A stretch of DNA of 64,000 nucleotides from an uncultured bacterium (GTDB lineage: Bacteria; Hydrothermota; Tepidihabitantia; SM23-42). The stretch lies in contig CAYQPW010000008.1 in NCBI GenBank assembly GCA_964419565.1, positions 28,284 through 92,283 on the forward strand. Direction: 5' to 3'. Shown here in pieces: positions 46,977-50,167 of the stretch. The notes under the pieces were generated by a model, which was not told where the DNA came from, ran no database searches, and worked only from the letters and a program-made list of their open reading frames with translations. Made by a program: the position numbers and the translations under genes. Every line of letters begins with the position of its first letter. The first letter of the stretch is position 1.

Positions 46977-47004
46977 TTGACTAAATAGATTTTCCATTTA
47001 TAAT
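46977..47004 (+). promoter_or_regulatory. Sigma70-type promoter for the riboswitch and TonB-dependent receptor transcript
   Basis: TTGACT (46977..46982), a 16-nt spacer, then TATAAT (46999..47004). Confidence 0.5.
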
Positions 47005-47011
47005 ACTCCAG

Positions 47012-47182
47012 GTTGGTGGATCCAAGGGAAGCACCGTGAGAATCGGTCGCGGTCGCCGCCACTGTGATTCTTTGTAAGACTCTGATCACTTAAAGTCACT
47101 GACGTCCACACACTGATCTTATTAGTGTCGGGGTTGGGAAGACTGATTAGAGCAAGATAAGTCAGGAGACCTATCCATCAAC
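47012..47182 (+). promoter_or_regulatory. Cobalamin (B12) riboswitch
   Basis: Conserved elements in order: GGTGG, AAGGGAAGC, CGTGAGAATCGG, GCCGCCACTGTGA, GGGAAGA, and a B12 box AGTCAGGAGACCTATCC. Closing P1 is GTTGGTGGAT (47012..47021) with ATCCATCAAC (47173..47182), including one G-U pair. It sits directly upstream of a TonB-dependent receptor. Confidence 0.8.
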
Positions 47183-47218
47183 ATCGCGAGAAAATCCTTC
47201 GGACGAAAGGGGGTAATA

Positions 47219-49174
47219 ATGATACCTTTGGCTTTTCTTGTCATACTCATTGCTCAACCGATCTATGAACTGGATGAGATCGTCGTTACTGCTACGCGTT
47301 ATCCTGCAGCTTTACAGGATGTCGCATTAGCAACGATAGTCATTGATCGGGAAGAACTCGACGAGTTCAATCCATCGAGTCTCACGGATGTTTTACAAAC
47401 ATACGCTGGTACTGATACCAAAGATTATGGTGTTCCAGGGACAGTGTCGAGCATATCTATCCGCGGCATTCCATCGAATGGCACACTGGTGCTCATTAAT
47501 GGTCATCCATTGAACTCGATAACCGTGGGGATGGCCGATCTGAGTGCGATAAATCTCAGTACAATCGAGCGTATTGAAATCGTTAAAGGACCGGTTTCAA
47601 GCTTGTACGGCGCGAATGGTCTTGGTGGTGCAGTAAATATCATAACAACAAAAGGTTATAAAAAGCCTGAATTCAAAATGTCCTTTTGTCCATCAACGAC
47701 CGATATAGATGTTCCCTTACAATCAAGAGAATTCTTTGCCAAACTGGGTTTACCAGCAGGTAGAATGATCTTTGACATTGCCGCAACATACGGTGCTTCT
47801 GATGGTTTCAGAGAAAACAGTGAATATACCGGCTATTATCTAACAGGTTCACTCGGCTATGAACTCGATAATACAAAGTTCATATCATCGCTGGTTTATA
47901 GTAATAGAGAATACGGATTGCCCGGACCAATGCTTGCCGATTCTACTTCCTCTTCTTTACTCGACCATGAGAAAGATGAATACCTTTTAGGAGATATAAA
48001 CATTTCATGGAACTTTTTAGAGAATTTTGCATGGGATAATACTTTATTTGCGGATCGTCGTTTTATCAAGTATCATACCGCGTATACGGATCTAAGTCAG
48101 GATACGCTGGAGAGTGATTATGATTACCTGACCTATGTTGTTGGCGTCAATTCGATCGCTCATTTTAAAAGCGGTAGGACTGATTTGACGATCGGTATTG
48201 ATACCCACTTTGACACCCTGGAAACGACTGAGACCCATGAGCTGTCGCGCGATACAATTTGGAATGCTTCTTCACATAATATCGGCGCCTGGCTTGAATT
48301 CAAATACCGAATAAAACATATTATTCTTGCGCCGAGCCTGAGATATGACCGGAATTCAAGGTTTGGGAATTTCCTTTCACCTGGGGTAGGTCTTATCAGC
48401 CCGCTTATTGATAATCTCTGGATTAAATTATCTGCGGGCAAGGCCTTTCGTGCACCGACATTCAATGACTTGTTCTGGCCTAATGCTGGCAATCCAGATC
48501 TTAAACCAGAACATGGCTGGGCATATGAATTACGCTTTGAAAGTTCTCCTTCACCGACGCTCTTCGCAGCATTATCTTTGTTTGCACGTTCTGTAAATGA
48601 CCGGATAGCCTGGCTTCCGGGCGATAATAATATGTGGCAGCCGCAGAATGTTAACCATATTTCAGTTCGTGGTGTGGATTTCGAAATGAACAAACAGATC
48701 AATGATTTCACAAACATTTATCTTGAAGGGTCTTATTTACAAGCAAAACAGAGAAACAATGAGATTACCTATGATTTTTATGATTGGGTAGCTGATACAA
48801 GCCTTACAATTATTGAAGAAGTAAAAAGAGATGCTGCTTTTACCCCAAAATATACGGCTTCAGCAAGACTCCATTTCAGTTTACCTTATGGATATGATTT
48901 TAATATCGAAGGTTTGTACGTCGCTGCGCAGGTCAACTATTATGTTAGTTATGATGAATACCCTGATATAACGATGGATACTAAAACACTCGATTCCTAT
49001 ATAATGCTCAATATAGGTTTTAGTAAAAAGGTCTTGAATTACCTGAAACTATCAGTCGGTGCGAAAAATCTACTAGACAAAGACCATGCGAAACAATTCG
49101 GTAATAGTATGACCGACTTGGATTATCCGATGCCTGGACGCCTGTTCTTTGCCCGGATCTCCATGGATTATTGA
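47219..49174 (+). CDS. btuB: TonB-dependent receptor, probable vitamin B12/cobinamide transporter (BtuB-like)
   Basis: Plug domain with a TonB-box-like DEIVVTATR and IEIVKGPVSSLYGANGLGGAVNIIT. A 22-strand-type barrel that ends ...FFARISMDY with a terminal aromatic. The riboswitch context supports B12 specificity. Confidence 0.8.
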   Translation: MIPLAFLVILIAQPIYELDEIVVTATRYPAALQDVALATIVIDREELDEFNPSSLTDVLQTYAGTDTKDYGVPGTVSSISIRGIPSNGTLVLINGHPLNSITVGMADLSAINLSTIERIEIVKGPVSSLYGANGLGGAVNIITTKGYKKPEFKMSFCPSTTDIDVPLQSREFFAKLGLPAGRMIFDIAATYGASDGFRENSEYTGYYLTGSLGYELDNTKFISSLVYSNREYGLPGPMLADSTSSSLLDHEKDEYLLGDINISWNFLENFAWDNTLFADRRFIKYHTAYTDLSQDTLESDYDYLTYVVGVNSIAHFKSGRTDLTIGIDTHFDTLETTETHELSRDTIWNASSHNIGAWLEFKYRIKHIILAPSLRYDRNSRFGNFLSPGVGLISPLIDNLWIKLSAGKAFRAPTFNDLFWPNAGNPDLKPEHGWAYELRFESSPSPTLFAALSLFARSVNDRIAWLPGDNNMWQPQNVNHISVRGVDFEMNKQINDFTNIYLEGSYLQAKQRNNEITYDFYDWVADTSLTIIEEVKRDAAFTPKYTASARLHFSLPYGYDFNIEGLYVAAQVNYYVSYDEYPDITMDTKTLDSYIMLNIGFSKKVLNYLKLSVGAKNLLDKDHAKQFGNSMTDLDYPMPGRLFFARISMDY

Positions 49175-49199: not shown

Positions 49200-49252
49200 G
49201 ATATGTGGGGTGACTGGATAGCCGCTCCCACACTTTTAGGGAATAATGAATT

Positions 49253-49513
49253 ATGTTCTATGTCTATTTAATAAGAAGCAAAAAGGACAAGAGATTATAC
49301 ACTGGTTATGCTAATGACCTTAAACGAAGATTCAATGAACATAATTCAGGTTTCAACAAATGCACCAAGGGACGTGGACCGTTTGAGCTGATGTGTTATG
49401 AAGCATATGAAGCCAAACAAGATGCAGTACATCGGGAGAAAATGTTAAAGCTTAGAGCAAAAGCTCTCGGTCAATTAAAAAGACGTCTCCAATATAGTCT
49501 GGATATTCCCTAA
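49253..49513 (+). CDS. Small GIY-YIG nuclease-domain protein (86 aa) encoded inside the rnpB P3 loop
   Basis: MFYVYLIRSKKDKRLYTGYANDLKRRFNEHNSG... carries the GIY-YIG hallmarks (YVY...YTG, R, EHN). Confidence 0.8.
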   Translation: MFYVYLIRSKKDKRLYTGYANDLKRRFNEHNSGFNKCTKGRGPFELMCYEAYEAKQDAVHREKMLKLRAKALGQLKRRLQYSLDIP

Positions 49514-49614
49514 TAGTGTGGGAGAGGAAAGTCCGGGCTTCAAAGGGCAAGATGCTTCCTAACAGGAAGCCCCGCACCTTCTTTGTCATATGAGATTAGG
49601 GATGGATTATCGCT

Positions 49615-49848
49615 ATGCATTATGTTTACATTTTTAAGAAACGGAATAATGAAGAGATCTATATCGGTTGTACGAACAATCTCAAGAGAAGATCTCGAGA
49701 ACATAATGTCCACGGTATGAAGTGGGATTTGATTTATTATCAAGCATACAAGGCGCGAAAAGATGCTTACTTACGGGAAGAAAGGCTCAAGTATTATGGT
49801 CAGGCGCTTGGTCAACTTAAGAGGCGCATTAAGAATAGCCTTGTATGA
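49615..49848 (+). CDS. Small GIY-YIG nuclease-domain protein (77 aa) encoded inside the rnpB P9 loop
   Basis: MHYVYIFKKRNNEEIYIGCTNNLKRRSREHNVHG... is a paralog of the P3-loop ORF. Shared motifs are NxLKRR, EHN and the C-terminal ALGQLKRR. Confidence 0.8.
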   Translation: MHYVYIFKKRNNEEIYIGCTNNLKRRSREHNVHGMKWDLIYYQAYKARKDAYLREERLKYYGQALGQLKRRIKNSLV

Positions 49849-50167
49849 CAAAGAAGGTGCGGGGGGAAAGTGCCACAGAAAATATACCTCCAGCTACATT
49901 AGTGGTTGGTAAGGGTGAAATGGCGAGGTAAGAGCTCACCGCTTTAGTGGCGACACTAAAGGCACGGTAAACCCCATCTGAAGCAAAACCAAATAAGCCC
50001 CGTATGAAATGGCCCGTTTCTACTGCTTTGCAGTGACGGGGTGGGTAGGTTGCACAGAGCATAGTAGTGATACTATGCCAAGACAAATGGCTATCCTTGA
50101 CAGAACCCGGCTTATAGGTCACCCCGCTTGTTGGTTTATTCGGTAATTCCCGAAGAAATACGGAGGT

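Follow-up and report, generated by a model that had tools for sequence, protein, structure and literature searches.

Organization of the RNase P RNA gene

The RNA subunit of RNase P is an essential and universal ribozyme. Its gene (rnpB) carries two inserts in the window (the whole 64-kb stretch of DNA that was analysed), and sister genomes show shifts of such inserts among helices P3, P9 and P12. What kind of sequence can occupy such a gene, and does it lie within the native helices or in place of them? The insert at 49570-49864 had been read in an earlier note as an insertion into the loop of P9. We propose that this insert represents a compact selfish element in full, with terminal repeats, leader and nuclease gene, and that a diverged sister copy stands in place of P3; this whole reading is likely, with a probability of ~0.8. 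The features of the locus are as follows.

About 49205-50130, + strand: RNase P RNA gene, bacterial type A, with two elements inside (Rfam RF00010, 183 bits)
49205-49214 pairing with 50118-50127, + strand: helix P1 (complementarity read from sequence)
GGATAGCC pairing with GGCTATCC, + strand: helix P2 of rnpB (complementarity read from sequence)
GAGGAAAGTCCGGGC and ACAGAACCCGGCTTA, + strand: the P4 strands of rnpB (complementarity read from sequence)
49226-49523, + strand: second element, type A (TCCCACAC...GTGTGGGA), in place of helix P3
49253-49513, + strand: GIY-YIG open reading frame (ORF) of the P3 element, 86 aa (Pfam GIY-YIG, E 8.7e-18)
49524-49569, + strand: native segment separating the elements, with J3/4, P4 5' strand, P5, P7 and P8 (GAGGAAAGTCCGGGCTTCAAAGGGCAAGATGCTTCCTAACAGGAAG fits the Rfam consensus)
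49570-49864, + strand: complete type B element, 295 nt, in place of helix P9; its ends are the ends of the perfect inverted repeat
49570-49590, + strand: left terminal inverted repeat (CCCCGCACCTTCTTTGTCATA), substitute P9 5' strand, opening with CCCCGCAC
49596-49605, + strand: purine-rich stretch TTAGGGATGG resembling a Shine-Dalgarno sequence, 9 nt 5' of the ATG (function inferred)
49615-49848, + strand: stand-alone GIY-YIG nuclease ORF of the Slx1/UPF0213 branch, 77 aa (Pfam PF01541, E 1.9e-10)
49844-49864, + strand: right terminal inverted repeat (TATGACAAAGAAGGTGCGGGG), substitute P9 3' strand, closing with GTGCGGGG
49865-50130, + strand: native segment 3' of the P9 element, from P10 to the P1 3' strand (Rfam, high posterior probabilities)

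The host gene met the criteria for type A RNase P RNA: a covariance-model match (183 bits vs a gathering score of 100), the P4 strands, P1 and P2. The Rfam alignment was reliable from P10 onward, and weak RNase P fragment matches were found between the two inserts. P12 of the window has no insert and is a 21-nt hairpin, TCCAGCTACATTAGTGGTTGG. The gene lies between a TonB-dependent receptor gene on one side and recJ on the other, as it does in relatives. The interrupted arrangement recurs in six separate metagenome contigs, and an assembly artefact was rejected on this ground. The window holds two copies of the proposed selfish element within rnpB; being 64 kb long, it does not exclude a second, uninterrupted rnpB elsewhere in the genome.

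The P9 and P3 elements

The arms of the P9 element are 21 nt long, 100% complementary and 253 nt apart. The chance expectation for such an arm pair, no more than 300 nt apart in 64 kb, is 64000 x 300 / 4^21 = 4e-6. The stop codon of the ORF (TGA, 49846-49848) lies inside the right repeat, and only 61 nt of the 295-nt insert are non-coding. The predicted RNA fold of this insert closes with a 25-bp helix, and a long helix that closes the fold is predicted for both inserts (z -6.4 and -6.5). On the 5' side the element is flanked by GGAAG, the P8 3' strand, and on the 3' side by GGAAAGTGCC, the P10 5' strand.

In the P3 element, the computed repeat spans 49222-49245 and 49504-49527 (24 nt, 92% complementary). 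The stop codon of its ORF (TAA) falls inside the right arm, the same layout as in the P9 insert. The two proteins share 43% identity (E 3e-20). At the nucleotide level, similarity between the inserts was limited to short patches, the longest being 37 nt at 73%, and no significant blastn cross-match was found between them. Alignment of the two inserts therefore shows similarity in protein and architecture, not in nucleotide sequence. Searches of the 64-kb window by tblastn and blastn revealed no third element copy and no solo arms.

The sequence statements of the earlier note on these inserts were all confirmed: the perfect 21-bp helix formed by 49570-49590 and 49844-49864, the ORF at 49615-49848 with its TGA in the 3' arm, a P3 insert arranged in a similar way with its stop codon in the 3' arm, and related proteins in both inserts (both match Pfam GIY-YIG). 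The heptamer TTAGGGA, which it regarded as a motif common to the two inserts, is present at 49236-49242 (P3) and 49596-49602 (P9) as described. It is not a family signature, because it is part of the arm in the P3 copy and is replaced by GGAG or GGAGG in relatives of the P9 copy; GGAG, GGAGG or GGAGGGG stands in those relatives where the window has the TTAGGGA stretch.

Related elements at other sites in close relatives

Both subfamilies were found at other positions in relatives. Type B elements occupy P9 (the window), P12 (L011-L013), the 3' side of tRNA-Ser (L007, L016) and intergenic DNA (L010); in L014 one lies at the P3/P12 junction, and a real deletion between copies cannot be told from an assembly collapse there. 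Type A elements occupy P3 (the window, L098/L099) and P9 (L094-L097) of syntenic rnpB genes. The rnpB loci with type A or type B elements are in, or are consistent with, one TonB receptor - rnpB - recJ neighbourhood. The class II tRNA of the window is tRNA-Leu, and it offers no empty tRNA-Ser(CGA) site for comparison with L007.

In the syntenic relative L011, the same P8 and P10 flanks surround an ordinary 29-nt P9 hairpin, AUUUGAUUCUCUC-GGAG-GGAGAAUCAAAU, and the long hairpin with its ORF is located in P12 instead. The empty P3 of L094 is CTCTATGTGAGAG. Decay was also seen: the P12 ORF of L011 has a premature TAG, and some P3 and P12 helices of relatives are ORF-less hairpins with arms of the element type.

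We assign the whole P9 helix to the element because the relative has a short and different P9 and because the terminus CCCCGCAC recurs at intergenic copies in unrelated phyla. The entire helix, including CCCCGC/GCGGGG, is the element's own and replaces P9; it is not a loop insert in a native P9. One element family occupies different helices of one RNA, and the arms are terminal inverted repeats.

These results bear on the remaining claims of the earlier note. Its description of a P9-loop insert was incorrect, as helix P9 is replaced entirely. The suggestion that the outer part of the helix represents terminal repeats rather than native P9 was correct and extends to the whole helix. Its idea that P9 of relatives might end at CCCCGC/GCGGGG was not supported; P9 of L011 is 29 nt of unrelated sequence. 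A naturally long, ORF-less P9 in relatives, which it had named as a refutation, did not appear, the syntenic relatives having a short P9. Its view that one family occupies two helices held and is strengthened by the copies in P3, P9, P12 and the tRNA-Ser flank of relatives. It had also proposed looking for more copies in structured RNAs; these were found elsewhere in 16S, 23S, rnpB and tRNA flanks, with none more in the window.

Survey of the element family

To place the window's elements in a wider family, 80 homologous loci from other genomes were surveyed; the homologues were mostly from CPR/Patescibacteria. Relatives were located by a homology search built on a 12-sequence protein alignment subset. 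In 72 of the 80 loci, an inverted repeat of 12-30 bp surrounds the ORF, with arms opening CCCC(N)CAC and an element length of 270-340 nt; in the same 72 loci the stop codon lies inside or adjoining the right arm. The shared terminus motif is CCCC(N)CAC...GTG(N)GGGG, and the CCCCGCAC terminus is also present at intergenic copies in unrelated phyla. No other gene was consistently near the elements in the loci compared. We conclude that the hairpin and the ORF move as one unit across many bacterial phyla.

Pairing between the arms was analysed in 73 distinct hairpins. Arms of the same locus paired at 17.9 of 20 positions vs 9.3 of 20 for arms of different loci, and nearly all arm positions showed two to four Watson-Crick pair types. 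Mismatches on the sense strand were C.A 17, U.G 17, G.U 9 and A.C 3. There was no clear excess of G.U over C.A; therefore, the pairing could be preserved in the DNA no less than in the RNA.

About a third of the family loci are in 16S, 23S or rnpB genes or adjoin a tRNA, always on the sense strand. An Rfam scan of 64 loci placed the ORF inside 16S in 6, inside 23S in 8 (14/64 for the two rRNA genes) and inside rnpB in 2. Two further rnpB cases were recognized by motif, and two copies adjoin a tRNA. L078-L093 were left out of the Rfam scan and were examined by motif and ARAGORN only. One Saccharibacteria MAG contains three copies (L060, L066, L076).

A metagenome scan revealed seven more ORF-bearing P3 copies, and ORF-less P3 hairpins with element termini in 29 of 80 loci. 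In the ORF-less P3 hairpins of ~105 nt, similarity to the element is confined to the terminal ~16 nt; their interiors could not be aligned with it. That these hairpins are relics of internal deletion is plausible but unproven.

Direct repeats of at least 4 nt abut both ends in 25 of 75 copies, vs 2.2 expected. These repeats are 4-12 nt long, and all copies that have them are outside rRNA and rnpB genes. A target-site duplication was absent (0-1 nt) at the window's P9 copy and at every rnpB and rRNA copy; therefore, the P9 event left none of the footprints seen elsewhere.

The element-encoded nuclease

The P9 and P3 ORFs scored 41.3 and 64.8 bits, respectively, against Pfam PF01541 (cut-off 22.6), and other Pfam matches were limited to the related T5orf172 and MUG113. 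The family profile searched against PDB matched 1zg2 (E 1.8e-11), 1ywl (5.7e-07) and SLX1 chains, with I-TevI (1mk0) at only 6e-3; there was also a weak profile match to NCBIfam TIGR01453. Among 30 homologues, Y16, G18, R26, H30 and E55 were invariant and Y5 was nearly so. The catalytic set comprises the Tyr of GIY, the Tyr of YIG, Arg, His and Glu. At 77-86 aa, the protein consists of the catalytic domain and a short basic tail without accessory domain, and a C-terminal ALGQLKRR tail marks the element's branch of the nuclease. This branch comprises ~4,400 clusters at 50% identity (E at most 1e-10).

The profile matches place the protein, a minimal nuclease of the Slx1/UPF0213 type, nearer to the stand-alone Slx1-like proteins than to the I-TevI/UvrC lineage; its nuclease activity is inferred, and the placement does not draw on a structural check of the C-terminal Asn. 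The dN/dS ratio of the P9 ORF was 0.36 vs L014, and that of the P3 ORF was 0.11 vs L096 and 0.08 vs L094. The element ORFs are under purifying selection.

Alternative explanations

The alternative that survives best, although we consider it unlikely, is a homing endonuclease gene. According to this explanation, the enzyme cuts an empty cognate site, the gene is copied in by homologous repair, and the hairpin only makes the insert tolerable. GIY-YIG enzymes are classical homing endonucleases, and the family profile weakly matches I-TevI (1mk0) and TIGR01453. The rnpB and rRNA copies are without target-site duplications, and the pattern of gain, decay and loss resembles the life cycle of a homing endonuclease. 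However, a single subfamily is found in close relatives at P3, P9 and P12 and beside a tRNA, and these sites have no flanking sequence in common. The excess of direct repeats (25/75 copies vs 2.2 expected, all outside rRNA and rnpB) also argues against homing, as does the absence from the protein of a DNA-binding domain of the type that gives homing enzymes their long target sites. The two criteria of a homing endonuclease, a fixed cognate site and a DNA-binding domain for a long target, were not met.

A second explanation, which we also regard as improbable, is a non-autonomous hairpin cassette, similar to a MITE or an rRNA intervening sequence, that is moved by a recombinase of the host or acting in trans and carries the GIY-YIG gene as cargo with a role in repair, defence or addiction. 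Prokaryotic Slx1-like stand-alone GIY-YIG proteins have been read as vertically inherited repair enzymes (PMC1564403). In P3, hairpins that have the same termini but no ORF are common (29/80 loci), which shows that the hairpin can persist in the absence of the ORF, and a transposase function is not known for any small GIY-YIG protein. Against this explanation, 72/80 loci from widely separated phyla contain both ORF and hairpin, and the position of the stop codon is coupled to the right arm. In addition, purifying selection acts on the ORF within the element, and no other gene recurs consistently in the neighbourhood.

The idea that the long P9 is a native expansion particular to this lineage, with an ORF that is spurious or else encodes a host factor serving RNase P alone, is all but excluded. 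The lengths of P3, P9 and P12 vary among bacteria, and the arrangement is stable across six contigs; however, syntenic relatives have a short P9 of unrelated sequence, other phyla carry the hairpin with its ORF in 16S and 23S genes, beside tRNAs and in intergenic DNA, and the ORF matches its family strongly.

A self-splicing intron (group I or group II) that carries an endonuclease gene can be dismissed just as firmly: introns with GIY-YIG genes occur in RNA genes of bacteria and organelles (PMC3984707), but the 61 non-coding nt leave no space for a ribozyme core, no intron was detected even at E up to 1, no other Rfam family was found in the inserts, and Tsurumaki et al. (PMC11270868) found all GIY-YIG ORFs of CPR rRNA insertions in non-intron insertions.

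Proposed mechanism

The preferred reading remains a mobile element resembling an intervening sequence, whose terminal repeats stand in for the helix that it replaces. We consider it likely (~0.8); RNase III cutting and the mechanism of mobility are inferred. In this model, the ORF has no promoter of its own and would be transcribed within the precursor of the stable RNA, an inference made without transcript data. The repeats would pair in the transcript, and the resulting helix would substitute for the lost peripheral helix, so that the ribozyme core could presumably still fold. By analogy with rRNA intervening sequences, RNase III may then cut the long perfect duplex; a perfect duplex of 21-25 bp is compatible with an RNase III substrate, as inferred from sequence alone. 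Cutting would free the small mRNA, after which RNase P RNA would consist of as many as three pieces paired with one another, and the activity of the RNA with its inserts is likewise inferred.

At the DNA level, the nuclease would drive movement of the element, probably by recognizing the conserved termini or the hairpin or cruciform that they form; this too is inferred. To our knowledge, no catalytic domain of 80 aa without a DNA-binding domain has been shown to mobilize DNA, and it is possible that the mobility enzyme acts in trans. Ordinary cut-and-paste insertion does not explain the exact replacement of a whole helix.

A bolder reading can be offered as a possibility only: the elements may be an unrecognized class of autonomous mobile element whose sole protein, a Slx1-like GIY-YIG nuclease of ~80 aa, acts on the hairpin or cruciform of its own termini. 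If so, the element would owe its persistence in essential stable-RNA genes to its ends, which fold into a substitute for the helix that it destroys, and the RNase P RNA described here would work as three fragments cut by RNase III. Many CCCCGCACC/GGUGCGGGG P3 helices and some P12 helices would be fossils of the element, and a selfish element would have shaped the periphery of a universal ribozyme.

Discussion

The shifts of inserts among rnpB helices amount to a natural test of which helices are dispensable for the ribozyme, and the locus is possibly a natural case of a fragmented RNase P RNA. The results suggest a selfish role for a branch of minimal Slx1-like GIY-YIG proteins whose function has so far been unknown. 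They also have a practical consequence: the inserts cause covariance-model searches to misalign or miss rnpB, which bears on claims that RNase P RNA is absent.

In the literature searched, there was no report of protein-coding or IVS-type inserts in bacterial RNase P RNA. Nor was anything relevant for bacteria found there on GIY-YIG proteins with terminal inverted repeats or target-site duplication, or on RNase P RNA fragmented by RNase III.

The closest structural parallel is with intervening sequences (IVSs). IVSs occur in the 23S and 16S rRNA genes of Salmonella, Leptospira and Coxiella, and some contain an ORF (Pfam 23S_rRNA_IVP). RNase III removes IVSs without religation, and the host RNA functions in pieces (PMC11270868). 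As in IVSs, a peripheral hairpin of a stable RNA is replaced here by a longer stem-loop with inverted repeats on the sense strand, and both kinds of insert are sporadic among relatives. In contrast to IVSs, the host in the window is RNase P RNA and not 16S or 23S rRNA, although members of the family elsewhere do sit in 16S and 23S genes. The protein is a GIY-YIG nuclease and not the four-helix protein of 23S_rRNA_IVP, the termini of the element are conserved across phyla, and direct repeats are present at copies outside rRNA and rnpB.

The best solved relatives of the nuclease are the UPF0213 proteins BH0048 (PDB 1zg2) and EF2693 (1ywl), which are likewise minimal domains of ~80-100 aa with GIY and YIG motifs and the residues Arg, His and Glu. 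Those proteins have been read as vertically inherited repair enzymes (PMC1564403), whereas the branch described here has the ALGQLKRR tail and belongs to a hairpin unit that changes position.

The element resembles IS/MITE and REP/RAYT systems in its terminal inverted repeats of ~20 bp with conserved tips, in its ORF-less derivatives and in the occurrence of several copies per genome. Direct repeats of 4-8 nt at many insertions are a further likeness to IS elements and MITEs. It differs from IS elements in having no DDE, serine, tyrosine or HUH transposase, its sole gene encoding a GIY-YIG domain of 80 aa, and in that insertions into RNA genes replace a helix and leave no duplication. No autonomous IS as small as this 300-nt element is known to us.

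Brown et al. 2015, as cited by Tsurumaki et al. 2024, reportedly dealt with GIY-YIG ORFs in rRNA insertions of CPR bacteria. The insertions with these ORFs are not introns of group I or group II and occur at several scattered sites (PMC11270868). The passages of PMC11270868 that we searched mention no bracketing hairpin, conserved termini or flanking repeats, and neither "inverted repeat" nor "RNase P". The CPR rRNA insertions and the window's elements very likely form one family. For these poorly characterized insertions, our analysis defines an anatomy consisting of termini, bracketing helix, size and flanking repeats. In several phyla it also extends insertions of the CPR type to sites in RNase P RNA, beside tRNAs and between genes; relative to the CPR rRNA insertions, the copies in RNase P RNA, at tRNA flanks and in intergenic DNA, together with the WOR-3-like host, are additions.

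RNase P RNA gene with two GIY-YIG ORFs in inverted repeats

The site matched the Rfam model for type A bacterial RNase P RNA (RF00010, 183 bits), with clean alignment only from P10 onward. Its gene (rnpB) and the helices P1, P2 and P4 were placed by reading the sequence. The gene is flanked by a TonB-dependent receptor gene on one side and recJ on the other.

Features of rnpB and its inserts in the window (position, strand, description)
~49205-50130, +, rnpB, placed by reading the sequence
49205-49214 and 50118-50127, +, P1, GTGGGGTGAC paired with GTCACCCCGC, read from the sequence
within rnpB, +, P2, GGATAGCC paired with GGCTATCC, read from the sequence
within rnpB, +, P4 strands, GAGGAAAGTCCGGGC and ACAGAACCCGGCTTA, read from the sequence
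49222-49245 and 49504-49527, +, inverted repeat at the P3 position, 24 nt, 92% complementary
49253-49513, +, P3-insert ORF, 86 aa, TAA within the right arm
49570-49590 and 49844-49864, +, inverted repeat at the P9 position, 21 bp, perfect
49615-49848, +, P9-insert ORF, 77 aa, TGA within the right arm

Both ORFs matched the GIY-YIG catalytic domain (P9 ORF, E 1.9e-10; P3 ORF, E 8.7e-18) and shared 43% protein identity (E 3e-20); similarity between the inserts at the DNA level was limited to short patches. Because the two-insert arrangement was found in six independent metagenome contigs, an assembly accident is ruled out. The earlier note had described a 21-bp helix enclosing a GIY-YIG ORF, with the stop codon in the 3′ arm and a counterpart in P3. 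These observations held in every detail, and its interpretation that one element family colonised two helices of the same RNA was correct in the main.

The receptor gene (47219-49174), directly upstream of rnpB, is preceded by a cobalamin riboswitch (47001-47192; Rfam, 66 bits). This is an ordinary B12-uptake arrangement, also kept in the relative L011. Owing to the inserts, the Rfam model mis-aligned the 5′ third of rnpB (49774-50130 versus 49205-50130). In two CPR loci (L037, L075) no rnpB match was reported although GAGGAAAGTCC comes right after the element. Inserts of this kind can conceal rnpB from annotation.

Replacement of whole helices

A syntenic contig (L011-L013) has the gene order of the window and a single ORF homologue, which shares 66% identity with the P9 ORF and is located in P12 (Rfam). 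The repeats bracketing this ORF (CCCCGCACCTATTTTGCTATA / TATAGCAAAATAGGTGCGGGG) and those of the window's P9 ORF (CCCCGCACCTTCTTTGTCATA / TATGACAAAGAAGGTGCGGGG) have identical termini, and their interior differences are compensated. P9 of the contig is an ordinary 29-nt hairpin (AUUUGAUUCUCUC-GGAG-GGAGAAUCAAAU), and P12 of the window is a hairpin of 21 nt. The earlier note had asked whether P9 of relatives ends at CCCCGC/GCGGGG. Because the relative combines an ordinary P9 with a same-termini element in P12, and the window has a 21-nt P12, this sequence is not native to P9. The element takes the place of the whole helix and is not an insert in the P9 loop.

The subfamily of the window's P9 element (type B) occupies P9 in the window and P12 in L011. 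It was also found directly 3′ of the discriminator base of tRNA-Ser(CGA) in L007 and L016 (TCCCGCACCTTTCAAGTCATA...), and as an intergenic copy in a Parcubacteria genome (ACCCCGCACTAACTTTTGTT...). For the P3 ORF (type A), the nearest homologues (87%, 78% and 77% identity) all adjoin recJ, and an upstream TonB receptor gene was called in two of these three loci. Type A occupies P3 in L098/L099, as in the window. In L094-L097 it occupies P9 (CCCCCACACT.TTAGGGAATAATGAATTATG...), and P3 is a tiny CTCTATGTGAGAG. Both subfamilies have shifted position within one clade.

In a WOR-3 MAG (L014:1420-1740, JAFGPO010000124.1), rnpB passes from P1/P2 into a single type B copy, which is followed by the 3′ side of P12 (…GGATAGCCG|CCCCGCACC…GGTGCGGGG|TAAAGGTGAAACGG). 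The 5′ side of P3 is thereby joined straight to P12 and the catalytic core is absent, P4 through P11 being missing. Either a core deletion by recombination between P3 and P12 copies or an assembler collapse of two near-identical copies could have produced this locus.

Anatomy and hosts of the family

With one genome scanned per species, homologues (35-71% identity) turned up at 80 loci. The closest were from MAGs of candidate division WOR-3; most others were from CPR/Patescibacteria, and some from Omnitrophota, Bacillota and others. Searched with a profile, 1.84 billion representatives yielded 4,385 clusters at E <= 1e-10. An inverted-repeat scan showed a 12-30 bp repeat bracketing the ORF in 72 of the 80 loci. 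With a single exception, the left arm lies no more than about 60 nt 5′ of the start codon; the right arm either overlaps the stop codon or follows it directly, and the element measures 270-340 nt. Arms start with CCCC(N)CAC, usually followed by a T-rich stretch.

Among 73 distinct hairpins, 17.9 of 20 positions paired between a copy's own arms versus 9.3 between arms from different loci; at variable positions 9-20 the values were 10.0 and 4.3 of 12. Almost every arm position showed two to four Watson-Crick pair types. This co-variation is compatible either with a structure-selected hairpin or with two ends that one protein requires to be alike. Selection at the RNA level and at the DNA level are not discriminated by the mismatch spectrum.

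Host RNA genes (Rfam, motif and tRNA scans), orientation of the element and loci
16S rRNA, sense: L023, L039, L042, L055, L069, L077; by motif also L080, L085
23S rRNA, sense: L025, L033, L044, L045, L049, L053, L072, L073
rnpB, sense: L014, L051; L037 and L075 via adjoining GAGGAAAGTCC
tRNA-adjacent, sense: L016, L038, L081, L082, L087, L092

No antisense copy in a host RNA gene was seen in these scans of the family loci. Because the repeat forms an identical helix in both orientations, host tolerance alone does not account for the sense bias; the bias suggests, by inference only, that the ORF relies on transcription of the host gene.

At loci without an RNA gene (among L014-L093), the nearest downstream ORF was co-oriented in 34/42 and the nearest upstream ORF in 25/41; intergenic copies tend to lie just upstream of a same-strand gene. 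In P0002, P0009, P0019 and some 200-340 aa matches, the right-arm stop codon is lost and the frame reads through into host sequence; the C-terminus of P0019 (…SVGEESPGF) is translated from GAGGAAAGTCCGGGCTTC, which is P4 of rnpB. Such readthrough may explain some of the long "fusion" proteins in databases as artefacts.

Footprints of movement

For the flank analysis, the element core was bounded by its first CC and its last GG. Direct repeats >=4 nt abutted both ends in 25 of 75 copies, versus 2.2 expected from pairing left and right flanks of different loci. Typical repeats were TTGAC, TATGA, TCAAA, CAAAC, TTATCC and GATAAC. In L038 the initial 11 nt of tRNA-Arg are duplicated at a hairpin copy, and the flanks differ among the three copies in one Saccharibacteria MAG (L060, L066, L076). 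Copies in rnpB and rRNA genes had no flanking direct repeats (0-1 nt); there the element helix occupies the place of a native hairpin (e.g. P3, P9, P12). In 16S rRNA we take the replaced hairpins to be helices 6 and 17, reading against E. coli numbering.

A DnaA-box-like TTATCCACA/TGTGGATAA abuts the element in Saccharibacteria and Paceibacterota at ~11 loci versus ~0.9 expected (L056, L060, L062-L064, L066, L068, L074, L076, L084, L090), and a portion of it, TTATCC or GATAAC, recurs as a duplicate at the opposite end of the element. Other copies are flanked TTGAC|…|TTGACA, similar to a -35 box. These junctions suggest a target preference for such sites.

In L092 (1430-1830), a homologous ORF without a bracketing hairpin lies between direct copies, ~55 nt long, of the tRNA-Cys 5′ part: on its upstream side is a pseudo-copy, and the intact tRNA begins right after it. 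According to the scans, the ORFs of L081, L082 and L087 likewise lack the hairpin and have a tRNA directly downstream.

Decay and ORF-less hairpins

The P12 ORF of L011 contains an in-frame TAG, and P3 of L011 (L011:2266-2369) is a 104-nt hairpin with element-type arms and no ORF. In L094, P12 is a hairpin of 30 nt, and its 3′ arm (AAAAGTGTGGGGG) is a type A right end. Metagenomes were scanned for an element-type right arm immediately 5′ of P4 (GGTGNGGGG + AGGAAAGTCC), which gave at least 80 loci (L100-L179). A matching left arm lay <=450 nt away in 45 of these 80. P3 contained a same-strand GIY-YIG ORF in 7 loci (one a partial copy), an ORF-less hairpin of 62-261 nt, clustering at 104-108 nt, in 29/80, and a short hairpin of 20-59 nt (e.g. 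CCCCGCACC-GTCT-GGTGCGGGG) in 9/80. The first ~16 nt of the 62-261 nt hairpins are type B arms; their interiors do not align. Two readings fit these data: many P3 helices could be remnants of the element, or a native P3 helix could be the source of its termini.

The nuclease

A profile of 30 homologues matched the Slx1-like stand-alone structures BH0048 (1zg2, E 1.8e-11) and EF2693 (1ywl), followed by eukaryotic SLX1; the match to I-TevI was only marginal. The GIY and YIG tyrosines, Arg26, His30 and Glu55 are fully or almost fully conserved, and a C-terminal tail ALGQLKRR(I/L)xxSL is the hallmark of the branch. dN/dS against orthologous or near-orthologous copies was 0.08-0.36; the ORFs are therefore maintained by selection. 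Dunin-Horkawicz et al. (2006, PMC1564403) interpreted prokaryotic Slx1-like minimal GIY-YIG proteins as repair enzymes passed on vertically. The present branch sits within a unit with the behaviour of mobile DNA.

Proposed mechanism

The ORF would be transcribed within the rnpB precursor, with the purine-rich stretch 49596-49605, 9 nt 5′ of the ATG, as putative ribosome-binding site; in relatives this place is taken by GGAG or GGAGGGG. The repeats would pair in the transcript, and the resulting helix would substitute for the lost peripheral helix. RNAfold predicted a long closing helix for both inserts (z -6.4 and -6.5). In type A RNase P RNA the helices P3, P9 and P12 lie on the outside and vary in length, so the ribozyme core should still be able to fold. 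By analogy with rRNA intervening sequences, the perfect 21-25 bp duplex may be an RNase III-type substrate. If cut, it would free the mRNA and leave RNase P RNA in three base-paired pieces, predicted at about 49205-49235, 49515-49580 and 49855-50130. E. coli M1 RNA reassembled from fragments reportedly retains activity, which makes a working three-piece RNA plausible.

The least secure step is that the nuclease would mobilise the DNA element. Kinship with Slx1, a structure-specific nuclease, and the hairpin-forming conserved termini suggest a putative cut at the base of the hairpin or cruciform, which could also account for the outright replacement of native hairpins.

Comparison with known systems

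When membership was tested, the element qualified neither as an intron, nor as a classical homing endonuclease gene, nor as a member of a recognised transposase class. The literature searched contained no description of a bacterial rnpB gene with ORF-bearing inserts, nor of a TIR/TSD element from bacteria that carries a GIY-YIG gene. We consider the element reading likely overall (probability ~0.8), and hold the specific RNA-processing and mobility mechanisms with lower confidence.

The two closest known systems are rRNA intervening sequences and the GIY-YIG ORFs in non-intron insertions of CPR rRNA genes. Tsurumaki et al. (2024, PMC11270868) describe the latter as sparse and scattered, with apparently no spread by homing; the passages searched in that paper do not mention a bracketing hairpin, conserved termini, flanking repeats or RNase P. 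The present family is very likely the same as these CPR ORFs. The finding leads to a widespread, barely described element family, which resembles intervening sequences, has a new host RNA and a defined anatomy, and has a real chance of being a new class of mobile element.
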